A DNA stretch of 64,000 nucleotides. Origin: a virus. Below, in pieces: positions 9,205 through 44,500 of this stretch (its first letter is position 1; each line of letters begins with the position of its first letter). Location: IMG/VR virus record IMGVR_UViG_3300045988_174665, one strand, 5' to 3'. The position numbers were made by a program, and so were the translations under genes. The notes beneath the pieces are model-generated. The model did not search any database and was not told where the DNA came from. It saw nothing but the letters and a program-made list of their open reading frames with translations.

Positions 9205-9585
9205 GGCTATCATATCGGTCTTTTAATAATGGCAGCAATGCTCTATCTTGCTCCAGATTTTATAAAAGAGGGAAGGTTATATTGGCTAAGAGCACCGCTG
9301 TATATAGTAAAAAATAAAGGAAAAGAAAGTTATTATTACACCGATGAAGAGTTTAATAAAGTAAGAAACACAATCAAAGGCGAAATAACTAGAAATAAGG
9401 GTCTTGGTGAAATGGATGCTGAATCGGCTAAGAAATCTATGTTTGAAGAAGAGCATCAAAGATTGGACCAGATTACCTATGATGATGAAGCTATTCGGCT
9501 TCTCCAAGAATTAATGGGTAGTGATGTCGAACCAAGAAGAAAATTTATTTTTAACAATATAGACTTTTCTACAATTAGAGAATAA
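9205..9585 (+). CDS. type IIA topoisomerase subunit B, exon 2
   Basis: The frame is open from 9202 and reads GYHIGLLIMAAMLYLAPDFIKEGRLYWLRAPLY. This matches GyrB D-G-xHI-xxLLLTFF...G..Y...PPLY. The track ORF 9229..9585 is only the part after the first ATG. Confidence 0.85.
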   Translation, partial: GYHIGLLIMAAMLYLAPDFIKEGRLYWLRAPLYIVKNKGKESYYYTDEEFNKVRNTIKGEITRNKGLGEMDAESAKKSMFEEEHQRLDQITYDDEAIRLLQELMGSDVEPRRKFIFNNIDFSTIRE

Positions 9586-9592
9586 AAATATC

Positions 9593-9625
9593 AAGAGAAG
9601 AAAATTTGTTTTTTCTTCTCTTTTT
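9593..9625 (+). terminator. rho-independent terminator
   Basis: 12-bp stem AAGAGAAGAAAA (9593-9604) / TTTTCTTCTCTT (9611-9622) followed by T residues. Confidence 0.65.
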
Positions 9626-9634
9626 ATATATAAT
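9606..9634 (+). promoter_or_regulatory. sigma70-type promoter for the topoisomerase A gene
   Basis: TTGTTT (9606-9611, in the terminator loop), 17-nt spacer, TATAAT (9629-9634). Confidence 0.45.
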
Positions 9635-9666
9635 ATTAATATAATAAAAAAGAAAGGAGAAATAGA

Positions 9667-24957: not shown

Positions 24958-25168
24958 TAAGATTATTTTATATACAACCCACTGCCCAAGGTGTGAAGTT
25001 TTAGAAAAGAAATTACAAGAAAAAGGAGTTATTTATGAGATTTCAGAAGATACACAATTTTTAATTGATAATGGCTTTTCTGAAGTACCTATCTTAAAAG
25101 TTGATGATGAATATTTAACTTTTTTAACCGCAGTTGGTTGGTTAAATTCAATTGAGGTGAAAAAATGA
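24944..25168 (+). CDS. nrdH: NrdH/glutaredoxin-like redoxin
   Basis: KIILYTTHCPRCEVLEKKL...VPILKVDDEY is a thioredoxin-fold CxxC redoxin. Start is uncertain: ATG 24914 has no SD, GTG 24944 is 1 nt from AAGGAG, and ATT 24953 has ideal 10-nt spacing. Confidence 0.75.
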   Translation: MITINKIILYTTHCPRCEVLEKKLQEKGVIYEISEDTQFLIDNGFSEVPILKVDDEYLTFLTAVGWLNSIEVKK

Positions 25169-27078
25169 ATATAAATATTAGATTAAATAAAAACTTTACA
25201 ACTCAATTTAATAAATTACTAACTGAATATGGTGAAGAATTTGCTAAGCTGAATGGACTTTCTGATACTTATTTAAATTATACCGATTTTATTGATAATT
25301 TTATTGATAAGGACACGGTTGCCGATGCTTCTATTGATGGTAATGCAAATGTAGGTCATAAAGATATTGTAACTTTACTAAATGAGATGCCAAAGCCGCA
25401 CCGTAAATTGTTAGCTTTAAATAAAATTTATTATGAAATGAATAAAAAATATGGCTTTAAGGAAGCTAATAAATGGCTAACTTTGGAATGGACAAGAGCG
25501 TTATATATGCACGATGCAGATACAAGCACCTTTAAAAGCTATTGTTTTGCATATGACCTCAAAGACTTAGCTGAAAAAGGCTTATTCTTTTTAGAGGGAT
25601 TTAATAGCTCTCCACCAAGACATTTGGGAACTTTTGTTGATTTTATAAAAGAGTATGTTAGCTTTGCCACAAATCGCTCTTCTGGTGCAGTTGGTATGCC
25701 AAATCTTATTCCATATCTATATTATTTCTGGGATAGAGATGTCAAGAATGGTTATTATACTGAAACTCCAGAAAGATATGCTAAACAACATATTCAAAGA
25801 CTTATTTATGGTTTAAATCAACCCTGTACTAGAGATGGCTTACAAAGTGCTTTTACAAACACTTCTATTTTTGACCATCCCTACTTAGAGGCTCTTTTTG
25901 GTGGGGCAATTTTTCCTGACGGAAAATTTATGATTGATGAGATTGAAGGTATTATGAATTTCCAATGGATGTTTTTAGAAGAAATGAGCAACATTCGTAG
26001 TCAGAATATGTTTACTTTCCCCGTTAATACAATTTCTCTTTTGAGAAAAGAAGGTAAGTTTATTGATGAGGATTTTGCAAAGAAAGCTATTAAACATAAT
26101 ATGAAATGGTCAGACAGTAATATTTTTGCCGATAGCTCCGTCAATAGTTTAGCTAATTGTTGTCGTTTAAAATCTAACATTGAAGATTTGGGATTTTTTA
26201 ATAGTATTGGTGGCACGGCATTAAAAGTGGGTTCTGTAAAGGTATCTACAATTAATCTTGCCCGAATTGCATTAGAAACTACAAATGAAAAAGATTTCTT
26301 AAAACTTCTACAAGAAAGGATTAAGGTTAATCTTGAAGCTCTTGATTGCGTACGTCATATAATTGAAAGAGACATTGAAAAAGGACTTTTACCGAATTAT
26401 ACAAAAGGTTTAGTTGACCTTAAAAACCAATATAATACAATTGGAGTTATTGGAATTTATGAAACTATGAAAACTTTTGGCTATGTTTATCAAGATGAGT
26501 TGGATAATTCTTTTTATAAAGATGAAGCTTATAATTTTGGTAGAAAAATTTTCAAAGTGATTCATAACACTAAAGATAATTTTATCTTAGATAAAGATTA
26601 TATGGTAAATGTTGAAGCTATACCTGCAGAACAAGCTGCAGTAAAAATGCAAAAAGCAGATGAACTATTATTTCCCAATAAAGTTGTAAAAGACTTGCCA
26701 CTTTATGGTAATCAATTTATACCTTTAGGAATTAAAACAACATTGCAGGAAAGAATTAAAATCGCCGCAGCTTTTGACAATTTTTGTAACGGTGGCTCGA
26801 TTCTGCACGTAAATTTAGAAGGACCTTTTAGTAATTTTGAGCAAGCTTGGGATATGTTAAATTATATAACTAATCAAGGAGTTACATATTTTGCTTTTAA
26901 TACTAAAATTCAAGCTTGTAAATATAATCACGCTTTCTATGGAAAGACTTGTCCAATTTGTGGAAATCCAGTAGAAAATGAATACACACGAATCGTAGGA
27001 TTTTACACTCCCGTAAGAACCTATTCAAAAGAAAGAAAAGAGGAATTTAAAATGAGAGAGTGGGAGAAAGTTAATTAA
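25165..27078 (+). CDS. nrdD: anaerobic (class III) ribonucleoside-triphosphate reductase
   Basis: Size and layout match. C-terminal Zn site (CKYNH...CPICG) is followed by the glycyl-radical motif TRIVGFYTPV. Confidence 0.88.
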   Translation: MNINIRLNKNFTTQFNKLLTEYGEEFAKLNGLSDTYLNYTDFIDNFIDKDTVADASIDGNANVGHKDIVTLLNEMPKPHRKLLALNKIYYEMNKKYGFKEANKWLTLEWTRALYMHDADTSTFKSYCFAYDLKDLAEKGLFFLEGFNSSPPRHLGTFVDFIKEYVSFATNRSSGAVGMPNLIPYLYYFWDRDVKNGYYTETPERYAKQHIQRLIYGLNQPCTRDGLQSAFTNTSIFDHPYLEALFGGAIFPDGKFMIDEIEGIMNFQWMFLEEMSNIRSQNMFTFPVNTISLLRKEGKFIDEDFAKKAIKHNMKWSDSNIFADSSVNSLANCCRLKSNIEDLGFFNSIGGTALKVGSVKVSTINLARIALETTNEKDFLKLLQERIKVNLEALDCVRHIIERDIEKGLLPNYTKGLVDLKNQYNTIGVIGIYETMKTFGYVYQDELDNSFYKDEAYNFGRKIFKVIHNTKDNFILDKDYMVNVEAIPAEQAAVKMQKADELLFPNKVVKDLPLYGNQFIPLGIKTTLQERIKIAAAFDNFCNGGSILHVNLEGPFSNFEQAWDMLNYITNQGVTYFAFNTKIQACKYNHAFYGKTCPICGNPVENEYTRIVGFYTPVRTYSKERKEEFKMREWEKVN

Positions 27079-28570: not shown

Positions 28571-29521
28571 ATGAGTAAGATAATTGATTTTCCAAAGGAA
28601 ACCGAAAAAGAAGTAAAAGAAAATAAAAAGAAAAAGCCCATATTACAAGATACTATGGATTCAATTGGTCAATTTGTAAATTTAGATGGTACAGATGAAT
28701 TTGTGAAATTATTGTCATTGCCAGATAGGGAATTTCTTCCCTTCTCAAAATTGGTACTTTCCGAATTTGAAGCTGGTTTAAGAGATGCAAATAGTAGATT
28801 AGAGATTACCAAAGCTTTAAATAGTAAAGGATTAAATGCAAGTAACTTAGGGGAATTAGCCTCAAAAACTTGTGAAGCTATTGATACTCAGTTATCAGAA
28901 ATTTTTTCTGTAGTAAAAAGAGATTTTTTAAAGCAATTAATAATGCTTTCGGCAGATGCGGTTATTTCTACTTCTGGAATAGCAACAGAAATTCTTGCTA
29001 TTCCTTTTGAAAAAGATAAAGAAGCTCTTACGCCAGATTATGCTAATGTTGGTGATGCAGGTATGGATATTTATGCTTTAGAAGATATAGATATTGAACC
29101 CGGTGAAACAAAATTAGTTAAAACTGGTATTAAAATAGCTGTACCTTTAGGTTATGAAATCCAAGTAAGACCAAAAAGTGGTATTAGTTTAAACTCTAAA
29201 ATGAGAATTGGTAATGCCCCTGGCACCATTGATAGCCAATATCGTGGAGAAGTGGGAATTATTGTTGATAACATTGACCCACCAATTAAAGATATAACTT
29301 ATGATTTCGATGAAAAACATCGACCAATTATAACTTCTATATTGCACGGCTCACCAATACATATAGCAAAAGGGACAAAAGTTGCACAACTGGTTATTAG
29401 TAAAGTAGTATCTGCTCACTTGTATCCAGTTAATAAAATTGAAGAAATTGAAGGAAATCGTGGTGGTGGCTTTGGTTCTTCTGGATTAACAAAAAAGGTG
29501 AAAGATAATGTCAAAGATTAA
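28571..29521 (+). CDS. dut: dUTPase with a ~150-aa N-terminal extension
   Basis: All five trimeric dUTPase motifs lie in the C-terminal half: GDAGMDIYA, RPKSG, GTIDSQYRGEVG, KVAQLV, RGGGGFGSSG. Confidence 0.9.
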   Translation: MSKIIDFPKETEKEVKENKKKKPILQDTMDSIGQFVNLDGTDEFVKLLSLPDREFLPFSKLVLSEFEAGLRDANSRLEITKALNSKGLNASNLGELASKTCEAIDTQLSEIFSVVKRDFLKQLIMLSADAVISTSGIATEILAIPFEKDKEALTPDYANVGDAGMDIYALEDIDIEPGETKLVKTGIKIAVPLGYEIQVRPKSGISLNSKMRIGNAPGTIDSQYRGEVGIIVDNIDPPIKDITYDFDEKHRPIITSILHGSPIHIAKGTKVAQLVISKVVSAHLYPVNKIEEIEGNRGGGFGSSGLTKKVKDNVKD

Positions 29522-30248: not shown

Positions 30249-30252
30249 AAAA

Positions 30253-30272
30253 AAGAGGGCTTTCGCCCTCTT
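30253..30272. terminator. bidirectional terminator between the convergent arms
   Basis: AAGAGGGC / GCCCTCTT stem with TTTC loop, flanked by A8 upstream and a T-rich stretch downstream. Confidence 0.8.
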
Positions 30273-30281
30273 CTTAATTAA

Positions 30282-30566
30282 TTAAACAAACTTTTCTAAT
30301 TTATGTGTAATGCGTTCTTTCCATTCTAATAAATGGTCTTCTACTAAATCTTTAAAACAATGACCGTCTTTTTCCTCATCACATAATTTATCAAACAGTT
30401 CTTTAGTATGAGGGAAACTTGTGGTTATTCTTTCTTTAGCAGAAGTATATAGAAATTTAGCAACTTCTGGGCATTCATTTGTTAAATGTTTAGCCCAGTC
30501 CATCCACATTTCGGCATCTTTTAAATCGTCTGTCATTTTATTATATAATGCTTTATATTTTAACAT
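30282..30566 (-). CDS. hypothetical helical protein
   Basis: 94-aa ORF, last gene of the - arm. No motif recognised. Confidence 0.55.
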   Translation of the reverse strand: MLKYKALYNKMTDDLKDAEMWMDWAKHLTNECPEVAKFLYTSAKERITTSFPHTKELFDKLCDEEKDGHCFKDLVEDHLLEWKERITHKLEKFV

Positions 30567-30577
30567 ATTGTCTACCT

Positions 30578-30994
30578 CTAAGCTATCTTTCTAATAGTAA
30601 CATTAACATTATTAAAGACAGCCTCTTCTCCAGTGTTTACAAAGGTTAAATTAGTTGTATTATCTATTGCACTGCAACACGGTAGTACTCTAATAATTGT
30701 ATTAAAGCTAATAGCTACCAAATCTGTTGTACTTGCTGAGGTAGCCGAAGAGGTAGCTCCCGGAACAGCAACCCCATTATTTTGAAGCTGAACAGCTACT
30801 GTTCCGGCGGTAGCGGCATTTGTCGCACCAGTACCATTAAAAGTTACATAATAATATCCAGACTTTTTTAAAGTAAAAGTAGAAGTGCCGGCGGAATGGT
30901 TAGTTACACAGTTATTTCTAATTGAATTATTATTAAAGTCAATAGTTCCATTAGTAGATATTGTTTGAGAAGTGTTTGTATAACTATTTACCAT
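30578..30994 (-). CDS. C1q/TNF-like (BclA C-terminal-domain-like) protein
   Basis: 138 aa, S/T/N/A/G-rich and beta-rich. The pattern FTLKKSGYYYVTFNGTG...VAVQLQNNGVAVPG...NTIIRV...VNVTIRKIA resembles BclA_C/C1q jelly-roll heads. No collagen-like stalk. GGAGG SD. Confidence 0.4.
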   Translation of the reverse strand: MVNSYTNTSQTISTNGTIDFNNNSIRNNCVTNHSAGTSTFTLKKSGYYYVTFNGTGATNAATAGTVAVQLQNNGVAVPGATSSATSASTTDLVAISFNTIIRVLPCCSAIDNTTNLTFVNTGEEAVFNNVNVTIRKIA

Positions 30995-31009
30995 TCTTAG
31001 TCACCTCCT

Positions 31010-31720
31010 TTAGGCACAATTACAATTACAGCCATAACCCACATTACTTACATTAGTTGTATAAGGTGAGCAAGTAATATAAGCTGGTGTTGGGAACGGG
31101 CGAAGCTGATTAATTAGATTAGCATTTTGAGCCTGTTGAGAAAGCTGGAAATTAGCTGTCTGTAGATTGTCACGAAGTGTTTGAATTTCTGTCTCACACA
31201 TTTTGTCAAGGATTCTCTGTGTATTTTGATTCTGAGCATTAATTACATCACAGAATCCTTTTGACATCTCATATTTAACACCATCAATATTTCGATTTGT
31301 TTCGCAGCAGCATTGCTGACTATCAAATCTTGCTTGGTTAATATTAGAGGTTACATTATTAAAGCCTTGACATAAAGCTCCTTCTACACCATTGAAGCCC
31401 TGTAGAGCAGTTGTGTTCATAGCATAGAATCCATCACAAAGTCCGTTGCTTAGTCCATCAAGCTTATTTACAATTGTGTTGGTATCAAAACCTCTTTGTA
31501 ATTCTGCTTGAGTTAAAGCGTTACCTGCGGCATCTCTATTACCAAAACCGAATCCGTTTCCTCCAAAAGCACTAAATGCCCAAATCCATACAAGATAGAC
31601 AAAGGGATTATTCCACATATTATCCCTATCATTATCTGTTAAAGCTGCGACCGTTGCTGCATCACAATTGTTACGGTTAGTTAAAGCCATTACATCAGCA
31701 GCAGATAAACCGTCTGTCAT
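31010..31720 (-). CDS. Cys/Asn/Gln-rich protein of unknown function
   Basis: 236 aa with one hydrophobic/Gly-rich segment (FVYLVWIWAFSAFGGNGFGFG), 14 Cys including QQCCCE and C-terminal GYGCNCNCA, and an N/Q-rich helical part. Strong GGAGGA SD. Confidence 0.6.
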   Translation of the reverse strand: MTDGLSAADVMALTNRNNCDAATVAALTDNDRDNMWNNPFVYLVWIWAFSAFGGNGFGFGNRDAAGNALTQAELQRGFDTNTIVNKLDGLSNGLCDGFYAMNTTALQGFNGVEGALCQGFNNVTSNINQARFDSQQCCCETNRNIDGVKYEMSKGFCDVINAQNQNTQRILDKMCETEIQTLRDNLQTANFQLSQQAQNANLINQLRPFPTPAYITCSPYTTNVSNVGYGCNCNCA

Positions 31721-31771
31721 AAAAAATTCCTCCTTTATTTAGAAAATATTTATATTATAACCCTTTTTGGG

Positions 31772-32023
31772 TTATTTTAAACTGTTAATAAAATTTAAAC
31801 CATTTTGAATATCTATATCAGATATTCCTTGATTTTTAGCTTGTTGTACTAATTGTTGTAAAGCATTATTATTAATTTGTGGTAAAAATTGTTTGAATTG
31901 CTGTTGATTTAATGGTATGTTTTTTGAAGCATTTGTAGAATTATTCATAAACATAGAAAAAGGATTCTGTTTTCCATTTCCCATCATATTCATAAACATA
32001 CCAAAAGGGTTAGATGAGTTCAT
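31772..32023 (-). CDS. small N/Q/M-rich protein
   Basis: 83 aa with a duplicated NPF(G/S)MFMN motif at the N-terminus. Overlaps the upstream gene end. Confidence 0.5.
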   Translation of the reverse strand: MNSSNPFGMFMNMMGNGKQNPFSMFMNNSTNASKNIPLNQQQFKQFLPQINNNALQQLVQQAKNQGISDIDIQNGLNFINSLK

Positions 32024-32414
32024 TTAATTTTCCTCCTTTATTTATCAGAGTAGAGAGCTTTTTTTCTAGTTCTTCTACTCTTTTTTTATAACTTTGATAG
32101 TCTGCTAATAAATTTGTTGTATCCGTTTCTTTTTCCTTTTCCTTTGGAGTTTCATATGGCATTAATTTATATGCCATAAACATTGGGCTTCCATTCTGCA
32201 TTGTTTTTATATATAACAAGTTCTCGGAAGGACAAAGGGCTAACGATAAACCAACTCCCATTGGTACATTTGCCACCTCTAATGAGTTATTAATTGTGTA
32301 TACACTACCTTGCGGCTGAGGGAATAACTGAGTAGGTTGAAATTGTACTGACGGAGAAGCGGAAGAGGGATTATTTTGTATTTGATTGTAAAGCTGTTGA
32401 AAATTATTAGCCAT
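32010..32414 (-). CDS. hypothetical protein (Q/P-rich N-terminus, coiled-coil C-terminus)
   Basis: Start taken at MANNFQQ (AGGAGG 8 nt upstream). First gene after the terminator at 32553-32580. Confidence 0.55.
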   Translation of the reverse strand: MANNFQQLYNQIQNNPSSASPSVQFQPTQLFPQPQGSVYTINNSLEVANVPMGVGLSLALCPSENLLYIKTMQNGSPMFMAYKLMPYETPKEKEKETDTTNLLADYQSYKKRVEELEKKLSTLINKGGKLNELI

Positions 32415-32552
32415 CACCATTCCTCCTTTATCACTTTTTCTCATCCGATTATAAGTAGAGAAAAGCATAAGTAAGTATAATTTTTTTGGTAAATTTTAAT
32501 GAAAACTGAGATGTTTGTTTTAAAAAGAATGTGGAAAATCAACAAAATTTTC

Positions 32553-32580
32553 TAAAAAAGAGAGGCATTAAGCCTCTCTT
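32553..32580 (-). terminator. rho-independent terminator after the Tal-like gene
   Basis: AGAGAGGC (32559-32566) / GCCTCTCT (32572-32579). The A run on + at 32554-32558 gives a T run on the - strand. Confidence 0.75.
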
Positions 32581-35500
32581 TTATCTTATGATTTCATTAA
32601 GTTGTTTTTGTAATATATTTATGTCTGTTGTAATATTATTTAATTGGTTTTGAGTCGTAAGTGAAGAAGAAACATTTGAATAATTACCCGTGCCATATTC
32701 TACATTTTTTATGGTTGCAGCCATTCTTTGGAATAAATCTTCGTAATCAGTTCTATAATTTTGAATAGTAATTTTAGTTTCAGCAGGGTTATCTAAATTA
32801 TGATTAATCTCAGATACAATAACTTCTTCTTTATAAGGAGTTATTTTTTCTTCATCTGACCAACCAAAAAATTCAGTATCTTCTATAAAGGTTTTATCTC
32901 TAATCTTAAAATCATATAGTTTAAATTCTGGTAAGGCAGAAATTTCTAAAGCATCAATTGTATAGCTGACTTTAGGAAAAGCATTTTCTCGTGCCTTTTC
33001 TATTGCTGAGAAATAATATATATTATCATCCATAAAGTCTTCTGACATCCAAGTTCCTTCTTGAATAAAGGCAGCATATTTATCATAGAAATCTCGTAAA
33101 ATTTTAACTTTTTGTTGGCTAATCGAATTAATTGAAGTTAAAATGCTATTATAATTTTTGCGTGCTGTAGTGTACTTATTATTATAATCTCTGTAGATAC
33201 GCTTATAAGCGGGAATTAATTTTTTATAATATTTAATAGTTTCTATGTAGCTAGTAAATAGTTTGTTGTTTTTAAATTCTTTAAAATAAGAATCATTGTT
33301 TTTAGTCAGGTAGTTGGAATAGCTTTTACCAGTTAGTTCATAGAAATTATTATAGTATTCTGTTAATAGTTTATTTATATTATCTACACCAAGTTTATAA
33401 GTTTCAACCATAGCTAAATACTTACTTTTTAAAATGCTATAAGTACCCAGATTTTTACTGTATTGTCTATTATTATTATTTAATTGTCTTAATAAATAAC
33501 AACAATTATCATAATTCTTTAAAAATAGTTTTTTTGAAATTAATCCTTGGTTAATATAATAAGACAAATCTAATATAAAGTTTTCTCCAATCGGATTGTT
33601 TTCAGCTCTTGCAATAGAGCAGAATCCATTCTCTCCATATTCATTAGAATTACTTTTTACTATTAATTTTGTAGAAATATTAGAAGAATCTATCGACCTT
33701 TGAATTGATTTTAAGTTAATACCATATTTAAATCCTGCATTATTAACTTGATACTGTTTTCTTTTAAAATATAAATATTTTAAAGGTTTATAAGTTTGTG
33801 TGTCATATTCTATATCACCCCGTTCAGAATGAAGAATCTCAAAATCCATCCAACAATCAAAAGTTTCGCATAGTTTTAGTAAGATATCATAAACATTGCT
33901 TTCTGTTGCAACAATTGAATTTTTCTTTTCGTAGGTTAAATCAATTTTAGGAATAAAGCTTGGGTCATCATAATATCCTTTATATTCATAAATCATTTTA
34001 TTAGCTTCGATAACTCCCTCATTATCACCGGGATTAAAATAGTAATAAATTGTATTATTTACATTGTCATTAACTTCTGAAGGATAAATTAAATTACCGT
34101 CCTTATCTCTATATTCTTTAAACAACTGACAATCTGCAATTCCGACATAAGATTCTCCACCTGCGCTATAAACTACATCTCCAAGTATGAATAATCCAAA
34201 ATTATCCTTAATCAAATCAGAATATTCTAAATTACCATATTTTGAGTCATCATAATGATAATCTCCAAAAGCCACTAAATCATAAATTCCATATATTCCT
34301 TCACCTTTGACTGTTGATGTCTGAGTAAAACCTGATACATTCCAAATATTAGACATTATTAATAAATCTATCATATCCTCGTGAGGAATACCAGAAACTT
34401 CTTTAGTTAACCCCTTTGTTTTTGACCAAGTTGTGGAAGTATCCCTGTTATAATTTTCTTTATAGGCGTATGTGATATTTGTAGCGTGAGTTTTAGGATT
34501 ATAAAAAGAGTAATTATTAAAAATTCTAAACCCGTTATAGCTTAAACTCTTAGAAGTACTATCGTTCCATAAAGATTCTAAAGTAGTTTTTCTTTCTCCA
34601 TTTACATCATATCTAAAATAATTTTCATTCCAAATAATCATATTAATTGGAGAAAAATAATATTGTTTTCCATCTTGAGGAAAAGTATAGGTAAGTTTTG
34701 TATTTTTATTATTTATTAATTCTTGAAGAGTCCATTCTCTTAAATTTAAACCGTCCTTCGGCTTTTGTCCAGTATAGTCTCCATATCCACTAAAATACTT
34801 AATCATCTCTCTGCCCGGACCTTCTTCTCTAGAAGTTAATATATAAGCTATTCTACTAGTATCTGGGTCTCGCGGATTATATTCTGTGCCAGAGGGGAAA
34901 TTTACTTGTTTAATAAAATTAACGGCATTACTTTCTGTACTCCAATAATTAGCTAAATATCTTTGCACAAAAAATAATGGCGCCCCACCATCTTTTAATA
35001 CAGTATTATTATAATATACAGGCACAAGTGAATTTGTATATATATCTTTTTCTGAGGCTAAATTATTAGTATCATTATTAAAAGAGATATAAGGAGTTAT
35101 TAAGTTCTCTTTAGACTCATTTAAGGCAGCGTTTTCTATATTACTATTATATTTTGCGATAACTGGATGTAATAAATTAAGTGGTAACATATCATTATTT
35201 AAAACAGATATAGATAGAGCATATTTGTCACCCTTATTAAGTTGATTTATAGTATAACTATAATCAGAAAAACCAGTATTATACAAACAAGGAAAATAAA
35301 ATCTATTATATCTACTATGCAAAGTATTACCAAATAATTTCCAGTTTAAAATAGGAACTTCAGAAGCTTTTCTTGTTAATGCAGCATCTTTAGTTTTAAT
35401 TCTTGAAGTTAAATCTAAAGAAATTAAATTGGTAACTGCTGTTTTTCCATTTTGATTACATGTATCTAAAGTTTTCCAACCATCAGTAGAAATAAAATTA

Positions 35501-37509
35501 TTAGGATTAGTAATATAATTCTCTACTAATGGAGTAGCTTCATATTCTTTTTCTTGGTAACCATAATATGTTGTATTGCCCTTAGTATATAAATCACAGT
35601 ATTTATCTAATAGGGGATAATATCTTTTCTCTTGTGGGGAATAATATCTATCAGCTCGGTACAATAGATTTAGAGTGTAAGATAATATTAAAAAAGAACT
35701 ATTTTTAGTAGGAATTACAATATCATTATTTTTATAAGTAACATCACTAATCATATAATAATTTTGATTAGATATTTTATTACTACTTTCTAAAGGTGGG
35801 TCATCAAGATAATAAATACAAGACAAAGTATTTTTTTTAGCAGATACCTCTCCGTAGAAAAAGCATAATTTTCCTTCAGGCTTTAGATTAAGTGTTGTAT
35901 CTTCAAAAATTAATTGTCCTTTATTATTTAATTCACATTTTTTACAATTAATTGTATAAATTCCTTCTGGAATAGTAGCAATATAAATGTTATCTTCTAA
36001 GGTTTGAACCAAAAAATCTGATTTTGTTTTGTTTAAACTATAGTTCGTTTCTTGTATTGCCCGCTCTGCCAATTCAAAAATATTTCCTGTGTTATTTTCC
36101 AATTCTGTATTGTAAGTAATATTAAACCCTACCTTAGAAAGTTCATTTTTAATAAGGCTTTCTGCTTGGTAAGTAATCTTATAATTTTCAGTCATTTCGC
36201 TGATGTTTTTAATTATAAAATCATACCACTTATCTTTATATTTAAGTTTTACTTTTCTTTCATTAATTAAAAGAGGTAAATATGGGTTATCTATTAATTT
36301 TCCCGTTTTATTATCATAATATTTAGCATAGATAGAGAAAGTTAAAGTATTATCTTCATTTTCTTTTAGAGATAAATTACAATCAAATGCTGCGGCTGGA
36401 TTATTAGTATCTGCATCTTTTAGAGTACAAAGTTTGTTTTCTTTTATAAATGTATCTGGCTGATTTAATGGGGTAAATAGTAAATCAGTGATAGTTAGAT
36501 TGTCTAAAGCAGAAGAAATAGAATTTTCAGTTTCTCTACCTATTAATAATAGAAAATCTCCTTCTAACTTATAAGGGGTACACCAACCAATAAAAGTCTC
36601 GGGAAGGACAAAAACAGAATCTGTTCGTGGGCCAATACCCATTCTTTGCCAAAGACCAATGCGACGAGAATAACTACTGTTTAAACTAACAGTATCAATA
36701 ACGATATCAAAATTAAAAGTTTGGTTAAATACATCTCCTGTAGTTTGTAAAGATTGTAGCCAAAGTGATTGTTCACTATTTTCCCCGTTTTTCCAAACAA
36801 TATTTTGTTCTCCGGCTGAAACCATTGTTGTCATAGAGTCATCTGTGTATTGGATTAATTTAATTGAAGTAGCAGTCTTTCCTTCATTAGAAACCTTAAA
36901 ATAATATTTTGGAGGGATTATATCTTCCAGTGCATGAGAGCCTTTTTTAAATGAACCATCTTTAAAGAAGCTAACTAATTTATCTGTTCCAACTGGTTTT
37001 TGCAAATATAATTGTAATGTAAAGCCAAAAGAAGAGCGTGGGTCATCCAAAGTAAAATTATTTAATTGATAAATTACTCCATCTAAAGGAGTATTAGGTC
37101 GATACCCAACCTCAAGGCCCCTACTAATTTTATCCCACTCTTGTTGTGATAAAAATTGCCCAGTGGTAATTTTAAAATTTTTACATCTTAAAAAGATTTT
37201 ATGCCTTTTTTGTGGCTGTATCCAATAACTAGTAGTTCCTAAACCTTTTGCATAGGTTTTCAAAAAACTAAGGGAATATGATTGTGGAACTTCCGTAATG
37301 ATGTGACTAGACCCATATAAAGCTTCTTTTTTATTAATCATTTCAGGAGGATTTTTTTGAAATTTAAACTTATCATGAGTTGTAATAGGTTCTAAATAAT
37401 AACTTAAATCATTCAAGTCACTATAATATCCTTGACATATGTTTATATAATCATAATCTGTAGGCTTTTCCACATTTTCCCACAAACTAATCTCATATTC
37501 ATTATTCAT
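32581..37509 (-). CDS. tail tip / baseplate hub protein (Tal-like minor structural protein) with large extra domains
   Basis: Follows Dit. Internal region NTLTFSIYAKYYD...VKLKYKDKWYDFIIKNISE...YQAESLIKNEL and C-terminal EGTWMSEDFMDDNIYYFSA...FPKVSYTIDALEIS resemble conserved blocks of siphophage Tal/anti-receptor proteins. 1642 aa. Confidence 0.65.
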   Translation of the reverse strand: MNNEYEISLWENVEKPTDYDYINICQGYYSDLNDLSYYLEPITTHDKFKFQKNPPEMINKKEALYGSSHIITEVPQSYSLSFLKTYAKGLGTTSYWIQPQKRHKIFLRCKNFKITTGQFLSQQEWDKISRGLEVGYRPNTPLDGVIYQLNNFTLDDPRSSFGFTLQLYLQKPVGTDKLVSFFKDGSFKKGSHALEDIIPPKYYFKVSNEGKTATSIKLIQYTDDSMTTMVSAGEQNIVWKNGENSEQSLWLQSLQTTGDVFNQTFNFDIVIDTVSLNSSYSRRIGLWQRMGIGPRTDSVFVLPETFIGWCTPYKLEGDFLLLIGRETENSISSALDNLTITDLLFTPLNQPDTFIKENKLCTLKDADTNNPAAAFDCNLSLKENEDNTLTFSIYAKYYDNKTGKLIDNPYLPLLINERKVKLKYKDKWYDFIIKNISEMTENYKITYQAESLIKNELSKVGFNITYNTELENNTGNIFELAERAIQETNYSLNKTKSDFLVQTLEDNIYIATIPEGIYTINCKKCELNNKGQLIFEDTTLNLKPEGKLCFFYGEVSAKKNTLSCIYYLDDPPLESSNKISNQNYYMISDVTYKNNDIVIPTKNSSFLILSYTLNLLYRADRYYSPQEKRYYPLLDKYCDLYTKGNTTYYGYQEKEYEATPLVENYITNPNNFISTDGWKTLDTCNQNGKTAVTNLISLDLTSRIKTKDAALTRKASEVPILNWKLFGNTLHSRYNRFYFPCLYNTGFSDYSYTINQLNKGDKYALSISVLNNDMLPLNLLHPVIAKYNSNIENAALNESKENLITPYISFNNDTNNLASEKDIYTNSLVPVYYNNTVLKDGGAPLFFVQRYLANYWSTESNAVNFIKQVNFPSGTEYNPRDPDTSRIAYILTSREEGPGREMIKYFSGYGDYTGQKPKDGLNLREWTLQELINNKNTKLTYTFPQDGKQYYFSPINMIIWNENYFRYDVNGERKTTLESLWNDSTSKSLSYNGFRIFNNYSFYNPKTHATNITYAYKENYNRDTSTTWSKTKGLTKEVSGIPHEDMIDLLIMSNIWNVSGFTQTSTVKGEGIYGIYDLVAFGDYHYDDSKYGNLEYSDLIKDNFGLFILGDVVYSAGGESYVGIADCQLFKEYRDKDGNLIYPSEVNDNVNNTIYYYFNPGDNEGVIEANKMIYEYKGYYDDPSFIPKIDLTYEKKNSIVATESNVYDILLKLCETFDCWMDFEILHSERGDIEYDTQTYKPLKYLYFKRKQYQVNNAGFKYGINLKSIQRSIDSSNISTKLIVKSNSNEYGENGFCSIARAENNPIGENFILDLSYYINQGLISKKLFLKNYDNCCYLLRQLNNNNRQYSKNLGTYSILKSKYLAMVETYKLGVDNINKLLTEYYNNFYELTGKSYSNYLTKNNDSYFKEFKNNKLFTSYIETIKYYKKLIPAYKRIYRDYNNKYTTARKNYNSILTSINSISQQKVKILRDFYDKYAAFIQEGTWMSEDFMDDNIYYFSAIEKARENAFPKVSYTIDALEISALPEFKLYDFKIRDKTFIEDTEFFGWSDEEKITPYKEEVIVSEINHNLDNPAETKITIQNYRTDYEDLFQRMAATIKNVEYGTGNYSNVSSSLTTQNQLNNITTDINILQKQLNEIIR

Positions 37510-38516: not shown

Positions 38517-41500
38517 TTATCTCATAAAACTTATAGCGTTGACATTTCTATATCTTGCATCACTAGCAATAGATTTTTTTACTTGTTTTGCCAACTGTTC
38601 TACATCATAATCTTTCTCAATTTTATCTACATTTATGTTAACTTCTACATTAACATCTCCAGTAGATTGAGAAGGAATACTATTATTATTATTATTATTC
38701 TTCATTACACTAGATAACACTTCTTTTAGAGTTAAGAAATTTTGTGTATCTTTTGCGTTTAATATTAACTCTGGAGAACTCTTAGTACCATCTAACCAAG
38801 CTGGACCAGTAAAGTCTGCTAGACCACCTTTTTTATATTGAGGAACTGACTTGATGGCAGAAGATTTAAACCATCCAGTATATCCCGAAGTTTTGTGGTG
38901 TCTAACTAAAACATAACCATTCTGTTCGCTAAGTACAATATAATTAGGGTCATAATCAAAATATTGATGACCGCCGCCTTGTCCAGAAGAATTTGCATAA
39001 ATTCGAGTATTTGGGTCAACTTTAATTTTACTACCAACCCTATATTTTTTATTGTTAGAATTAGAACCTTGTTTTTTGCTTGAAGTAGAATTAGTTTTCT
39101 TACTTGTAGAAGTTTTAGTCCAATTTCCTCCAGTTTCTAAAGTTCTAAAGGTTCTACCATCGGGCATTAAGAATACATCATTATAAGTTGTGTAGCCTCC
39201 TTTACCCTTTACTCTAACACTACCATCTGATTGAATAACTCCAGTTTGTTGCTTACCATTACCATCAGTAAAAGTAATACCTTGACCGCCATAATAGCCT
39301 AATTTTTCGAGTTGCCTATCTTTTGCGTAGGTACTAATAGATATCTTAGCTGATTGTTCAAGAGTGTCTAACCAATCCATTTTTTGCATTGAAGATAAAC
39401 CAGAAAAAGTATCTTCTTTCTTTAACAATTTTTCTAATTCACTACCTTTTAATAACGCCCCAGTGGCAGTAGTTCCTTTGTTGATTAAAGTATAAACTTC
39501 ATTCCAATATTTACCTTCGTTTTTAGCAACATCTAATTGTGCCTGCATTATACTGATTTGAGTTTGACGTTGGTCAGAAGCTTTCTCGTTTTGTTGTTCT
39601 ATCTCACTCAATCTTTGGTCAATCAAATTATCAGTATAATCTTGTTCTTGATTAGTTAATTCTTCCTGTAATTGTTTTATAGCTAATTCGTTTGAACCCG
39701 AAGTATCTAATTGTAGATAAGCTAATTGTCTTTCTTTATCAGTAATTTCTTTTTCTGTTTTTTGATTATTGCGGTCTTGACGAATTTTATCTAAATTCTC
39801 TTGAATTGCACTCATCAAAGCATCATTACTATTATTAATAGTTTCATCTAAATTAGATAAGTTATCAATAATCTTTTGTTCTCGATTTAAAATAGCGTCA
39901 TAAACACGCTGTTCAAAATCCATCGTGTCTTCTCTACCTTGCTCTTCAAGTTCCTTTAAAGTATCAGTATATTCGTCAATTGCATCTTCTGCATCATTCA
40001 TAGAGTCTTGAAGTTCTTCCAATTTGGAAATATATTCTTCTATTCTATCCCCCAAATCATTATCAGTAACTCTATTAATATTGCCCCAATTAATTTCAAT
40101 TGTATTGTCTTTCCAGTTGTAAGCTGCGTATTTTTTAAGGTCAGAGTTCCAAGAAACAGTATCTTTGATTTCTTGTTTACGATTTACATACATTTGTTGT
40201 TGTAATCGTATTTCTTCTTCAAGAACTTTAACTTGACTTTTATAGTTTTTATAAATATCTTTTGCTGTTGATTTCCTATTCTCTAAAAGTCGGTCATATT
40301 TCTTTTCAAGTTTTTCTCTTTCCCTTAGTTTCGCATTAATATCAGCAGTTAAGTTATAAAGCCAATCATATGTATTTTTCCAAGGTTCTTCTTCTTTTGC
40401 AGAGGAAGACTTTTTTGTTGACGACTTTTTAGTCGAAGCCTTTTTGGTTGAGGCTTTTTTAGTTGAAGTATCGTAATCAGAAGTTTGACCTTCTTTTCTT
40501 TCATATCCACGAGCAAAACTAAAGAATTTTTGCTGATGACTTCCCTTTAAAATATCTTTGGTTTCATCAGCAGGGAAAATAACATCATCTTTATTAACTT
40601 TTGTAATTTCTGGGCCTTTCGCTCCCAGAAGTTTAGCTTCACCTTTTTTATTATAAGATAGCTCTGGACCTTCTTCACCAACCAAAGCATTGGAAGAAAC
40701 TGGAGCTTTTTTAGTTCCTTGGGCAAAAGACCAACCTTTTCCCGTTGAAAAAGTAGGGGGTTTATTTAAGTTGATTCCAAAAGTATTGGATAGAACTTTA
40801 CCGAATTGTTGAGGTGGTCCTTGTACTTCTAGGCTTTCATTATTTAAAATTTGATTTAACAGCTTAGCGTCTTCAATACAGTCTAAAATGGCCTGGTCTA
40901 TATTATTTCTAATATTAGTTCCCGCCTCACTAGTATCGACCGTAGTAAAACTATCTGTAATGGCTTGAGCATAAATAGTTGCGTCGGCTTTTGTTTGAGC
41001 TTCTTCTAAAGTTTTAGCAACCCCATTTTCTTGAACTTCAGTCAGCTCTAAATCATAACCCTTTAATTCAATTGTGCCATCTTTATTTTCTAAGTTATCA
41101 ATTTGTTTTTCTACTGCTTCGTAAATTAAATCATCTTTAACCCCTAAAGAAGAAAAGGTATTAACAAGTTCATCTAAAGAAGCTTTACCATTAATAAAGG
41201 GGTCTAGCCCTCTATTTTTCTTACCCCAAATTTCTTCCATAAGGGACTGGACATTTTTAAGTTGAGTTTCAGTATCGTCGTCGCTACCCAAATCAAAAAT
41301 TTTTATTTCTCCAGAATCTTTGATTCTTTTTTTAATGTCTTCTACGGTAGTTAATTTATCAATATTGATATCTAACTCTTTAGCTAAATCTTGCCATACT
41401 GTTAACTCATCTTTTCCATAAAGTTTACCATAATTAGTTAAATCTTTTGTATTGATAATAGTTTGTGTTTGTGTCTTTTGAACTTTTTCAACTGAACCAC

Positions 41501-44500
41501 TACCTACTTTAGTTTTCCATTCATTTTCTAAAGTACTAATTTGATATTCACTTTTCTTTAAGAAATCAGACCAACCTGCGGCATAATCATTCTCTCTTAA
41601 TTCTTGAGCTAAATCTCCAGAATAATTTTTAAAATCAGTGAGCATCATTTTAGCATATTCTTCGGTAACATTATAAGATTTAGCAATTTTTTTAACTACT
41701 TCATTAGTTGAAAATTTTCCGACATCTAAATCAATACTACCATTAGAAAGTAAAGATACTCCTAGCCCCTCTTTCTTTAGAGCTTGAGCATAATCGCTAT
41801 TTGTTGCCAAATCTTTCCAAGCACCATAAAGATTATTATAAAGTTTCTTTAACTTCTCTCCATAAACTTTAGTTGCTTTTTCTAAATCTTTATTAGCGGC
41901 TTTTTCAAAATCTTCACCAAAGAATAGGTCTAAATAGTTATATAATTGTGTATTACCATAAGCCCCTTCTTTAAGCCAATTGGCAACTTTTTCAACAATA
42001 TCATTAACTTTATCCCCAACCTCTCCTTCATCAATACCGGGGTCAAAATTGTCTAATAAATCAACTGATTCAGCTACTACATTATTTAACTGTTGAGTGC
42101 TATCTGCCAATTCTAACAATCCATTAGTTACATCCTCAATTCCTAAATCACCAGAACCAACTGCCGCAAGCGTATCTGCTAAAGTTTGGGCTGCTATATC
42201 TGTATTTTCTAAAACATTTTGAAGTTCAGTAGATTCTTCGGCATATTCTTCCACTTTAGAAGCAGTTATTTTATCGCCTTTTTTAAGGGTCTTAACAATG
42301 TCTTTCTGTATATCTTCAAAACTACTAGCTTTAAAGAATTCCTGCATTTGAGCACCGACACCATATGCTACTTGACCTACTTCTGCCATACCCTTAGCAA
42401 CTTTTCTAATTTCCTTGTTACTACTTGCTAATCCCTTTTTAATTGCAGTAGCACCCTCAATAGCGCTATCCCAATTAACATTTTCAAGGGTTGAAGAGAA
42501 TTTATCCATATATTCTTTAATGTATTTATCAGATTTATTAGATAGTCCATCAAAAACAGTGGATATTACTGAAGTAGTCCCTTTTTCTCCAAATTTTTTC
42601 AACAAAGTATTTTCAAAATTAGTTATAGAAGAGGCTTGTTGAGCGTTTAATTTTTGAATTACAGCGGAATAACTATTTAATCTTTTTTGGGTATTGTCAT
42701 TTTCAGTTGCTTTTATAGCTGTACCAAATAGTTGCTTTTTTTGCCGTAATTGCGTAGTATGTATATCGGTCTTTGCTTGCTCAAAAGCTTGAGTTAATTC
42801 TTCTACGGTTGTACCCATTTCAGAGGCTAGTTCACTTGCACTTTTATCCATTTTTTTCAAATAGGTATCAAAATTATCTAGTTTATTATAATCTAAAGTA
42901 GTATCTCGATTTAAAATTCCAATAAACTCTTTCTGGTCAGTTAATGCCATCTTAGAAATTGCCTCATAGGCATTATTTATATATTTTTGATAATTTTCGC
43001 CCACTTGTTGTGATGCTAATTGAAATCTCATCGCATCTTCTTCCATATCAGAAGCGATTTTAGAGATATCTCCACCGTAGAAAGCATCTGCATATTTTTT
43101 CTTTAGGTCGTCTCCGCCAACGCTATCAAGGTCTCTTTTTGCCTTTTCTACCTCTTCCTGTAAGTTGCCACTTATTTGAGATAATCCATTAGCTAATCCT
43201 TCTGATAAGCCAGAATTTTGTAAAGCGTCGCTAATCCCTTGTAACATTGTAGTTTTAATAGCAGAGGTATTTAATTGGTCTTTAGCCTCCTTCGCTAATC
43301 TACTTCCTTCAAAGTCAGCAGAACCATCTACACTTTTATAAGTAGCTGCAGAGCCACCACCTGCTGCTATTTTATCATTTAATGGAGAAAAAATATTTTT
43401 ATTTAAATCGGCTAGCATTGCTTGAATACTGTTAGCACTATAGGTAACACCATTAATTGTCAAATCTTTAGTATTAGCCTGAACCCAATTCCATACATCA
43501 GTTGATGTGTTTTCTAATCCAACTGCCGAATCTTTTAAAAGGTTTTGTTCTTCAACACTACGGTCGGTTGATGCCTGAGCCTCCTTTTTTATAGCTTCCA
43601 ATAAAGAATTATATTTTTCATAGCCTTCTTTAAAAGTTGCTCCCTCTTCAAGCGTCATTCCAGAATCCGAAAGCCCATAAACTTTTTCTCTTGCTGCACT
43701 TTCTTTTTCATTAATGTCTTTTTGCTGTTTTAAAAGTTCGGTATATTGAGAGCCAACAAGAGTGGAAGTTTGTAATTTAGAAACTTTTTCCCCTTCTTCT
43801 TTAAGAAGTTCATTTTGCCCCTCTTCATTTAAAGTTAACAGACCAGATTTATCAGTAGTAATATATTTGGCTAATTGAGGATAAGTTTCAAGCAACTTAA
43901 CAACTTCTTCATTAGCTTTAATTAATTGGTCCTTCCATTCACTTGTGCCAACTGTTAAATCTTCTAAAGATTTAACTATTTCATTATAATTATCAAAAGA
44001 TTCCTGTAAATCATCATAAGCCGTTTTCGCATCGTTAGCAGCTTCTTTAGAATCTTTTAAGGCTTGGGTGGCTTGCTCAATTTTATATTCAATTGAAGCT
44101 TTTTTAATTGCATCGGCAATCCACCAGATGGCTCCAGCTATAGCTGCTAGTCCTGCTAAAACCCAACCTACTGGCATTGATGCTATAGCGGCATTTAAAA
44201 CTGAGGTCGCACTTGCTGCACCATTGGCAGCAATAGCCTCTACCTCTTCTGCCGAAGCTAATCCTAAAGATTGCATTATTGCTAATCTTTTTGCTTTATT
44301 ACAGAATAGTAATGCTGCATAAGACCTTGCTTTTATACCAATACCAACATTTTCTTGATTATTTTCTGCGATTAAGTTTAAGAAATAACGCTTAGAACCA
44401 TCAGATAATTCATCATTAAGACTTATTCTCTCTGATATTTTTGCGGTATCTTTATTTAAATAAAGAAGAGATTGTTTATTGGTGTCAAGTCCTAACTTTT

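Follow-up and report, generated by a model that had tools for sequence, protein, structure and literature searches.

Trimeric fibre heads in BclA and F-BclA are formed by domains of the BclA_C/C1q type, and the structure 9H38 represents the C1q-like C-terminal domain of F-BclA, an appendage tip protein of Bacillus thuringiensis (PMC12357932). A protein of this type (pD) is encoded in the window, i.e., the entire 64,000-nt stretch of viral DNA analysed here (IMG/VR virus record IMGVR_UViG_3300045988_174665), where it forms part of a cassette of five co-oriented minus-strand open reading frames (ORFs) at 30282-32468, named pA-pE in transcription order (Table 1). pD aligns with the BclA/F-BclA C-terminal domain (PF18573) over its whole length and is of similar size (~135 amino acids, aa), 9H38 being its best solved relative. 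It differs from BclA and F-BclA in lacking a stalk, a leader and an N-terminal domain, in being phage-encoded, in carrying a conserved Cys pair and in always being accompanied by the Cys-rich protein pC. Moreover, in a third of the modules the slot of pD is held by a non-homologous protein (pD2).

i-Spanins are disulfide-linked coiled coils and o-spanins are Pro-rich; the order of elements in pC recalls both of them as well as class I fusion proteins. Shared with lambda Rz/Rz1 spanins and class I fusion proteins are a hydrophobic segment, two long (in pC predicted) helices, Cys residues at the chain reversal, a Pro-rich segment and a frequent location beside lysis genes. In contrast, no sequence or profile relationship to these proteins emerged from searches of Pfam, PHROG and PDB, and no outer-membrane lipoprotein partner is present. 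Unlike spanins, pC possesses an N-terminal extension of 40 aa as well as a Gly/Cys tail, always occurs together with pA, pB and pD, and is found in phages of hosts which are mostly monoderm and in some cases diderm.

Distal fibres with their adhesin/chaperone pairs (e.g., T-even gp37/gp38) resemble the cassette in that a stalk-like gene is followed by a small gene for an exchangeable, head-like product; the swapping of pD2 with the type present in the window (pD1), a fusion protein described below (P0423) and the frequent location after tail genes add to this likeness. However, the module has no fibre or chaperone homology, contains a membrane-type helix in pC, is portable across genome regions and morphotypes, can be dispensed with and comes with a regulator of its own. 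ExsY/CotY-type coat proteins with a BclA nap also combine a Cys-rich assembling protein with a BclA_C-type head, lack signal peptides and have a GerE/sigma-r4-like regulator nearby. In contrast to them, pC is helical with a putative hydrophobic anchor, shows no sequence relationship to these coat proteins in the searches made and includes non-sporulating organisms among its hosts. Like phage morons, finally, the cassette is terminator-bounded, self-contained and portable, sits at module junctions in variable positions and is dispensable in a close relative, but it is far more widespread, is internally conserved with four co-evolving genes, and an upstream scan of the window revealed no promoter.

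Conservation and distribution of the gene module

The five minus-strand genes reported in a first-pass annotation of the window were confirmed as ORFs, and the two hairpins flanking them fold far below shuffled controls. For comparison, 160 loci with pC relatives were fetched from bacterial genome bins and IMG/VR and complemented with annotated phages; neighbouring genes were detected with iterative, self-built hidden Markov models (HMMs), one per gene. The counts rest on longest-ORF calls, and co-occurrence is independently supported by adjacency and strand. The genes pA-pB-pC-pD are collinear and adjacent across 167 loci, the partners being on the strand of pC and no more than a few hundred bp away, and their order and strand in the window are the same as across these loci. 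The cassette genes thus stay together in related phages as well as in distant ones. pA is located beside pC in 158 of the 167 loci, always on the pC strand (median gap -252 bp), and overlaps pB in 119/128 loci. The pB HMM matches 130/167 loci; among the 37 loci without a match, 28 have a pA and could be checked, and most of these (the window included) hold a small M/N/Q/G-rich ORF of another subtype, which in case of the window is the one also found in L003 and L172. The slot following pC is occupied by pD1 in 100 loci and by pD2 in 58, with both present in only one. The conserved unit is a four-gene core, pA-pB-pC-pD. Of the five-gene unit originally proposed, these four genes were retained, while pE occurs in only 5/168 sources and is a lineage-specific add-on outside the conserved core.

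At least 7,697 significant homologues of pC were found in a collection of 5.8 billion proteins, none of which carries a Pfam domain or an informative name, and an exhaustive profile search yielded 2,473 clusters at 50% identity (1,332 with E 1e-10 or better). Thousands of homologues and conserved synteny mark the cassette genes as real, and chance ORFs or an artefact were rejected on the same grounds. It is near certain that the window cassette belongs to a conserved, undescribed module. This module is a self-contained, terminator-bounded and widely mobile accessory operon of gut phages, and its products form two pairs, the Cys-free, low-complexity proteins pA/pB and the Cys-bearing proteins pC/pD. 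Cys is restricted to pC and the two pD types (medians of 4 in pD1, 8 in pD2 and 0 in both pA and pB).

The earlier impression that no known system fits was borne out, since Pfam, PHROG, NCBIfam, PADLOC and PDB gave no characterised system, and profile searches assigned no ordinary tail-fibre, chaperone, lysis or defence family. pA, pB and pC have no match in Pfam, NCBIfam, PADLOC or PDB; pC matches PHROG 16490 (E 4e-27), a family of unknown function, and pD is likewise listed in PHROGs only as an unknown-function family. With PADLOC defence and counter-defence models, the five window proteins gave no match at E up to 0.01 and their canonical partners noise-level scores only, and a defence or anti-defence role was rejected for want of such matches. 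Full-text literature searches on family identifiers, phage names and the crAss 'spike protein' found no function and no covering proteomics.

Within the lineage of the window (90-127 kb contigs), the relatives L172 and L173 keep all five genes pA-pB-pC-pD-pE at the same site. In a further relative (L174:8001-8889), pA is kept and pB, pC, pD and pE are gone, their place being taken by a 103-aa protein that reaches 22.8 bits with Pfam Rubrerythrin, which equals the cutoff; hence, pA can persist without the Cys-rich pair. The absence of pC and pD from this close relative shows the module to be dispensable.

The genes following pD vary: across the 167 loci, DUF7841 is found in 62, a small pG in 33 and a ferritin-like pF (PDB match with E 2e-5) in 23. 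pE is weakly similar (E 0.008) to the rubrerythrin-like protein in the same slot of L174, and its marginal score with Pfam Mlp (23.2 bits) is probably spurious; the idea that pE is a truncated ferritin-like pF found no support. A small protein (75-90 aa) of the sigma-70 region-4 (sigma-r4) or GerE-like helix-turn-helix type is encoded before the module (L005:4930-5163, L007:4939-5169, L002:1667-1927). Such a sigma-r4-like gene is located ~850 bp upstream in 111/167 loci; the same HMM detected no homologue in the window.

The sources are nearly all gut or faecal, and all identifiable hosts are anaerobes. Bins containing pC are labelled mostly as Clostridia (Lachnospiraceae, Oscillospiraceae, Christensenellales), further as Phascolarctobacterium, Megasphaera, uncultured Bacilli, many Gastranaerophilales/Vampirovibrio and some Bacteroidales, it being understood that host labels of metagenomic bins can be wrong. 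Cultured carriers are six phages of Clostridium perfringens (CPD1, XP41-N3, CPQ4, HMD-PC1, vB_CpeS-17DYC and vB_CpeP_PMQ04) and the Bacteroides uniformis phage C3_41T2LP. In addition, pC homologues are encoded in many Crassvirales genomes and in two viruses recorded as infecting Methanomassiliicoccales, for which the archaeal host labels could not be confirmed. The homologues from Crassvirales and Bacteroides phages were labelled by their depositors as 'spike protein/glycoprotein' or 'outer capsid protein/viral fiber'. DUF7841 is found near pC in two of three such loci (Crassvirales cr52_1 and Bacteroides phage C3_41T2LP), with none in cr116_1; homology to pA or pD among the Crassvirales neighbours of pC was undetectable by single-sequence hhalign.

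The genome position of the module differs between phages. In the window, Dulem virus 36, L005 and L172-L173, it is preceded by genes for tail or receptor-binding proteins, and it is situated after or before holin and endolysin genes in L003, L007 and cr116_1. In CPD1, it is found among small hypothetical genes upstream of a recombinase, thyX and SSB and downstream of an amidase and a holin, and in C3_41T2LP among recombination genes, in neither case close to the tail genes. Its place in vir215, a putative archaeal virus, is between genes of a diversity-generating retroelement (DGR) and of the tail on one side and an integrase on the other. The proposed tie to the distal end of the tail module does not hold for these other settings with early/recombination genes or behind holin and endolysin. 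A census of Pfam families among 148 upstream neighbours (102 non-redundant loci) showed mostly unannotated genes; among annotated ones, lysis families are commonest, followed by tail families. In the crAss-like phage cr52_1 (L169:2522-3547) and in vir215 (L170:4152-5186), reverse transcriptase genes that probably belong to DGRs adjoin tail-protein genes, with the pC homologue a few kb downstream of them.

Lysis genes coexist with the module in the form of GH25 and holin (L007), NAGPA and Amidase_2 (L003), amidase and holin (CPD1) or holin and L,D-carboxypeptidase (cr116_1). Because of this coexistence and the changing genome position, the module is neither a replacement for lysis genes nor a fixed part of the tail. 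The suggestion of a non-canonical lysis set in place of the endolysin was rejected, as normal lysis genes are present in many carriers (the 64 kb of the window itself were not exhaustively scanned for them); moreover, none of the five cassette proteins matches a holin or peptidoglycan-hydrolase family in Pfam, PHROG or NCBIfam.

The module proteins and a proposed stalk with exchangeable head

The N-terminal part of pC comprises an amphipathic helix (LSAADVMAL), an acidic linker, a hydrophobic Trp/Phe-rich helix and a Gly-rich run. These are followed by two long predicted helices joined at the invariant CCC-ETNRNID, a Pro-rich segment (LRPxPxPAYxTCSPY) and the Gly/Cys tail; additional Cys residues are conserved as well. 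The copy in the window carries all family motifs, i.e., GLCDGFYA, CCCETNRNID and LQTANFQLSQQAQ as well as the Pro-rich one. The compositional peculiarities described in the first-pass annotation (the repeat of pB, the Cys motifs of pC and its hydrophobic, Gly-rich segment F40-G60; Table 1) were found again, except that pC contains 12 rather than 14 Cys residues. For F40-G60, the best 19-residue Kyte-Doolittle window averages 1.6 across the family, 62% of the sequences reach at least 1.6, and few K/R residues flank the segment, which is a candidate membrane anchor or fusion-peptide-like element. The CCC motif is kept in the Crassvirales homologues and in P0423. PDB contains no sequence relative of pC; structure-based annotation was dropped, the AlphaFold2 model being too poor to search.

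Two mobile elements were observed at pC. In L172, a relative of the phage of the window, the gene is split (8778-10350) into parts encoding residues 1-46 and 69-236, with ~890 nt between them. The insertion contains a group I intron (Rfam RF00028, 54.3 bits versus a gathering score of 50, E 9e-13) with an ORF for a GIY-YIG homing endonuclease, and it interrupts the codons for the hydrophobic helix. In CPD1, a homing-endonuclease-like ORF of 216 aa (CPD1_038, L002:5098-5748) is inserted between pB and pC, representing a second mobile endonuclease that targets the cassette. Intron and endonuclease fit a conserved, expressed target.

In the fusion protein P0423 (557 aa, L175:263-2687), the pC core, without its hydrophobic helix, is preceded by a beta-rich N-terminal domain of unknown kind and by a long coiled coil composed of Ala/Ser/Glu; a pD2-type ORF and DUF7841 come after the fusion gene. 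Its N-terminal domain gave no match in Pfam, PDB or annotated phages.

For pD, the described likeness to stalk-less BclA_C/C1q domains was recovered at the profile level: the pD1 family profile finds 9H38 in PDB with E 6.5e-6 and the BclA entries 2z5w, 2r6q, 1wck and 3twi at E ~0.1. The window copy, which belongs to the pD1 family with E 4e-40, scores 31.2 bits with BclA_C (E 2.2e-7, model positions 4-127 of 128), i.e., below the curated cutoff of 38, and 16.5 bits with C1q. Across the family, 14 of 27 diverse members match BclA_C at E up to 0.1 (best 2.9e-9); close homologues have ~135-138 aa throughout, most of them with a precomputed PF18573 match. The domain covers residues 5-137 of 138 in the window copy, and neither an exosporium leader nor a GXY stalk was found. 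Judged by sequence homology, pD presumably adopts a trimeric jelly-roll fold. The alternative pD2 is a Cys-rich beta protein without family relationship in Pfam or PDB, and a link to endospore appendages (ENA/DUF4183/DUF3992) is unsupported. That pD1 and pD2 are divergent homologues was rejected, as hhalign shows no relationship.

The likely start of pA is the ATG at 32414, giving 134 aa; GGAGG is found 7 nt upstream, and close homologues of 132 aa begin with MANN. In pA, a low-complexity N-terminus rich in Q/Y/N/P (Q/P-rich in the window copy) is followed by a small core domain, which a linker connects to a coiled-coil helix; the C-terminal motif of the protein is GGKLNELI. AlphaFold2 predicts beta-alpha-beta-beta-beta topology for the core (aa 33-88; predicted local distance difference test, pLDDT, 80-94) and a helix at 101-126. 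Foldseek found nothing significant among PDB folds (best E ~0.1), and the matches of the model in BFVD are uncharacterised gut-phage proteins only. When compared by hhalign with a profile of canonical pA from which the window sequence had been excluded to avoid bias, the window pA aligned with 93% probability (E 3e-7). The composition of pB (35% N+Q, 8% M) is unusual, and no family in Pfam, PHROG or NCBIfam matches it. With their overlapping genes, pA and pB are translationally coupled.

Taken together, the module may tentatively be understood as a portable unit that builds a Cys-linked, hydrophobically anchored helical-hairpin stalk (pC) and caps it with a head that can be exchanged (pD), the coupled proteins pA and pB serving as scaffold or chaperone partners; this is the reading preferred here, albeit held at less than even confidence. 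The stalk formed by pC would be an oligomer of helical hairpins, roughly 80-90 Å long, which the hydrophobic N-terminal segment of pC keeps in a membrane or hydrophobic socket and which is stapled or bridged by the invariant Cys residues (CCC turn, Gly/Cys tail) via disulfides or metal. pD, as a presumed trimeric jelly-roll, could dock on pC through its own conserved Cys and serve as exchangeable ligand-binding head. pA, with a new beta domain, coiled coil and Q/Y-rich tail, and pB may act as scaffold, chaperone or further subunits, and pE would be a lineage-specific add-on to the operon of this structure. Together, these proteins would make up an auxiliary adhesion structure, similar to a spike or fibre, with a target that is independent of the envelope type of the host.

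Several observations favour a stalk with exchangeable head. Domains of the C1q type serve as heads of fibres. The co-occurrence of the four genes, the confinement of Cys to pC and pD, the anatomy and invariant Cys residues of pC, the intron in a relative and the flanking terminators also speak for the proposed operon. The non-homologous replacement of pD1 by pD2 in one slot resembles the swapping of receptor-binding heads. P0423, in which a fibre-like N-terminal part is joined to the pC core, provides a supporting lead. The independent fibre and spike labels of depositors agree with this reading, as does the usual location of the module behind tail or lysis genes on the same strand.

Other findings weigh against it. 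The spike and fiber labels of annotators are computational, and P0423 was seen once, on a single 2.9-kb contig, which makes it a lead and not a proof. The AlphaFold2 model of pC is all-helical at low confidence (pLDDT 43), so that the hairpin is deduced at the level of secondary structure only. Virion fibres do not usually contain a hydrophobic helix of the membrane type. Since pA, pB and pD are devoid of signal peptides, they could reach the outside of the cell only by lysis or on virions. The small regulator of its own in two thirds of the loci and the early/recombination-gene setting in CPD1 and C3_41T2LP are atypical for structural genes, and L174 does without the stalk and head genes. Finally, the literature searches gave no experimental datum or virion proteomics for any module member.

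Conservatively, the cassette may be classed as an accessory fibre- or spike-like cassette of phages with an exchangeable head; if its function were unrelated to adhesion, it would be of a new kind altogether.

Alternative functions

One may further speculate, though with clear doubt, that the module encodes a so far unrecognised structure or machine of the gut virome, in which a class-I-fusogen-like, Cys-stapled hairpin (pC) cooperates with the exchangeable pD in a function independent of the envelope, thus constituting a new functional class of phage genes with a small regulator of their own. Its carriers would be phages of Bacillota, Bacteroidota (Crassvirales), Negativicutes and Melainabacteria, and possibly archaeal viruses. 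Binding of virions or lysed cells to gut mucus or particles, or a step of entry or egress akin to membrane fusion, also in monoderm hosts, may serve as examples. 

Since phages of different morphotypes and of hosts from different phyla carry the module, its function is probably general to gut life or to the interaction of phages with membranes, candidates being adhesion, persistence, egress and redox handling. If the preferred stalk-and-head reading is right, a four-gene module in thousands of gut-phage genomes is presently represented by hypothetical proteins or misleading 'spike glycoprotein' labels only. Three of the four core proteins are without a characterised relative, and the core domain of pA is without a solved-fold match. 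The carriers include therapeutically interesting Clostridium perfringens phages as well as crAss-like phages, which are among the most abundant human gut viruses, and with CPD1-like phages and C3_41T2LP in culture, the question is directly testable. Even if the function turned out to be mundane, definition of the family would help to annotate a large part of the viral dark matter.

It is unlikely that pC acts late as a spanin-like or class-I-fusion-like membrane-active protein spanning the membrane once, with hairpin collapse fusing or disrupting membranes at egress (or at entry, if virion-borne) and with pA, pB and pD as regulators or partners. Such a role would accommodate the order of elements in pC (hydrophobic Gly-rich segment, long helix, Cys turn, long helix, Pro-rich segment) and the depositors' label 'spike protein/glycoprotein', yet a lipoprotein partner is missing, pA, pB and pD have no lipobox or signal peptide, and an extracytoplasmic hairpin would leave the strictly co-occurring pD and pA on the wrong membrane side. 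Holin or endolysin genes are very often direct neighbours of the module, but several phages have it at a site apart from their lysis genes, and the close relative L174 does without it. Likewise, the cytoplasmic membrane is the sole envelope layer common to all host groups, whereas the hosts are for the most part monoderm Clostridia, C. perfringens among them, in which no role of spanins is known.

Localization also bears on a rather improbable alternative, namely a complex at the cytoplasmic face, anchored by pC (N-out, C-in) and engaged in metal binding or redox sensing in strict anaerobes. The cytoplasm is the simplest meeting place for partners without export signals, and all identifiable hosts are anaerobic, although the bias towards anaerobes and the gut may reflect database sampling. 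In such a complex, the Cys-rich pC and pD would provide Fe-S, Zn or Cu ligands, the Met-rich pB would be redox-sensitive or metal-binding, and ferritin- or rubrerythrin-like accessory proteins would take care of iron and oxygen species, either supplying or detoxifying them. The invariant Cys clusters of pC, the conserved Cys residues of both pD types and the Met motifs of pB are compatible with these roles; however, no recognised metal-binding motif or family was matched, and a C1q-like head and its swapping for an unrelated protein are hard to explain. Ferritin-like pF follows pD in 23 loci, i.e., a minority of the modules, and while a rubrerythrin-like protein is present in the lineage of the window, pE of the window is not detectably ferritin-like.

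Very improbable is the view that the five genes encode ordinary parts of a siphovirus tail tip (distal fibre, receptor-binding head and chaperones) too divergent to be recognised. Their place in the window is directly behind the genes for the Dit-like (Sipho_tail) and Tal-like proteins and on the strand of these, an arrangement shared by the lineage of the window and by Dulem virus 36. Yet they sit behind a strong terminator, and the module comes with a regulator of its own, is separated by a long distance from the tail genes of CPD1 and C3_41T2LP and is lacking in a close relative whose tail genes are the same. Fibres commonly contain C1q-like heads and coiled coils, and P0423 is in line with a fibre; no match to a fibre, receptor-binding-protein, Tfa or chaperone family was found in Pfam, PHROG or NCBIfam, however, and the module also occurs in Crassvirales (podovirus-like) and in contigs labelled as myo-, podo- and siphovirus.

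Neither a signal peptide nor a lipobox was found in pA, pB and pD, which argues against the suggested secreted toxin or display on the surface of living host cells; among the sequences of pA, pB, pD1, pD2, pE, pE2, pF and pG, none has a lipobox with hydrophobic N-terminus. As to the exosporium, its assembly takes place in the cytoplasm and does not require signal peptides. The BclA_C-like pD, Cys-rich pC, Q-rich pA, GerE/sigma-r4-like regulator and ferritin-like accessory protein recall parts of spore coat and exosporium. Nonetheless, a moron that, by supplying BclA-like and Cys-rich coat proteins, converts the spore surface (exosporium-like) or cell surface of a sporulating clostridial host is hardly credible in spite of this parts list, the terminator-flanked, moron-like layout and the presence of the module in C. 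perfringens phages, because pC is also found in phages of non-sporulating hosts (Crassvirales, the Bacteroides uniformis phage, bins of Phascolarctobacterium, Megasphaera and Gastranaerophilales) and in Methanomassiliicoccales-labelled viruses, pD has no collagen stalk and exosporium leader, no homologue bears the name of a cellular spore protein and several carriers appear virulent. The exosporium or surface-layer function considered in the first-pass annotation is unlikely for the same distribution of the pC family, which extends to archaea-labelled viruses.

Locus boundaries, base composition and flanking genes

Within the cassette, the first 14 nt of pB also belong to the end of pA, and pC-pD and pD-pE are separated by 15 and 11 nt, respectively. 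Ribosome-binding sites of the GGAGG type, as read from the sequence, precede four of the five ORFs.

Table 1. Features of the cassette and its boundaries in the window (positions refer to the entire 64,000-nt stretch)
Feature	Position	Strand	Description and basis
Upstream boundary hairpin with U-run	32554..32582	-	Intrinsic-terminator-like; dG -17.7 kcal/mol, z -4.57 versus shuffles
pA	32010..32414 (longest ORF to 32468, 152 aa)	-	ORF; divergent member of the first gene family of the module
pB	31772..32023	-	83-aa ORF; N/Q/M-rich, duplicated NPF(G/S)MFMN, C-terminal helical motif LQQLVQQAKNQGISDIDIQNGLNFI
pB-pC spacer	31721..31771	-	Short hairpin AUAACCC-AAAAA-GGGUUAU and promoter-like TTTAAA-16-TATAAT, then ribosome-binding site of pC; scan
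pC	31010..31720	-	236 aa, 12 Cys in window copy; QQCCCE; C-terminal GYGCNCNCA
pC hydrophobic segment F40-G60 (codons)	31541..31603	-	FVYLVWIWAFSAFGGNGFGFG; conserved in the family, including Crassvirales copies
pC Cys137-Cys138-Cys139 (codons)	31304..31312	-	Junction of the two long helices; invariant columns in 23-sequence alignment
pD (pD1 type)	30578..30994	-	138-aa stalk-less BclA_C/C1q-TNF-like protein, conserved Cys pair (PCC)
pE	30282..30566	-	94-aa helical, K/E/D-rich protein
Downstream terminator hairpin with U-run, after pE	30250..30275	-	Terminator scan, 11 pairs; dG -17.0 kcal/mol, z -5.1

The upstream hairpin begins at the stop codon of the Tal-like gene. It was missed by a simple consensus scan because A-U pairs absorb part of the T-run. 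The downstream hairpin separates the converging structural (minus) and replication (plus) modules. A scan of the minus strand at 32415-32552 detected no sigma-70-like promoter, a consensus from which host or phage promoters may differ. The only sigma-70-like site on the cassette strand (31781-31754) is the one in the pB-pC spacer, where the fold of the accompanying hairpin is not significant (z -1.6). This site could represent an internal promoter or attenuator dividing pA/pB from pC/pD/pE. Rfam RNA elements were not found in the region at E up to 0.1.

The locally raised GC content noted at 30.6-31.7 kb is real (0.369 versus 0.302 window-wide, 98.8th percentile), whereas GC at third codon positions (GC3) is only slightly higher (0.21-0.25 versus 0.17-0.20). 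Since GC3 remains near the phage norm, the rise results mostly from Ala/Gly/Cys-rich coding and not from foreign origin, and the possibility of a foreign island was rejected.

Upstream of the cassette are genes for a Tal-like protein and a Sipho_tail (Dit-like) protein, both on the cassette strand, and a long ORF. The Tal-like protein (1642 aa, 32581-37509) has sub-threshold matches to Prophage_tail only and no PHROG match, and the long ORF (2883 aa, 38517-47168) is at the position expected for the tape measure. The source of the window is probably an unusually large siphovirus-like phage, given that close pA homologues (94 clusters) are located on 100-127 kb contigs. Downstream, a plus-strand module with RuvC-like, dUTPase, NrdG and NrdD genes converges on the cassette. 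The dUTPase (316 aa, 28571-29521) is recognisable only at residues ~154-235 and has an N-terminal extension of ~150 aa without family match. The nrdD gene is intact in the window (25165-27078), whereas in the relative L173 (13596-16381) it seems to be split in two pieces by a GIY-YIG endonuclease gene.

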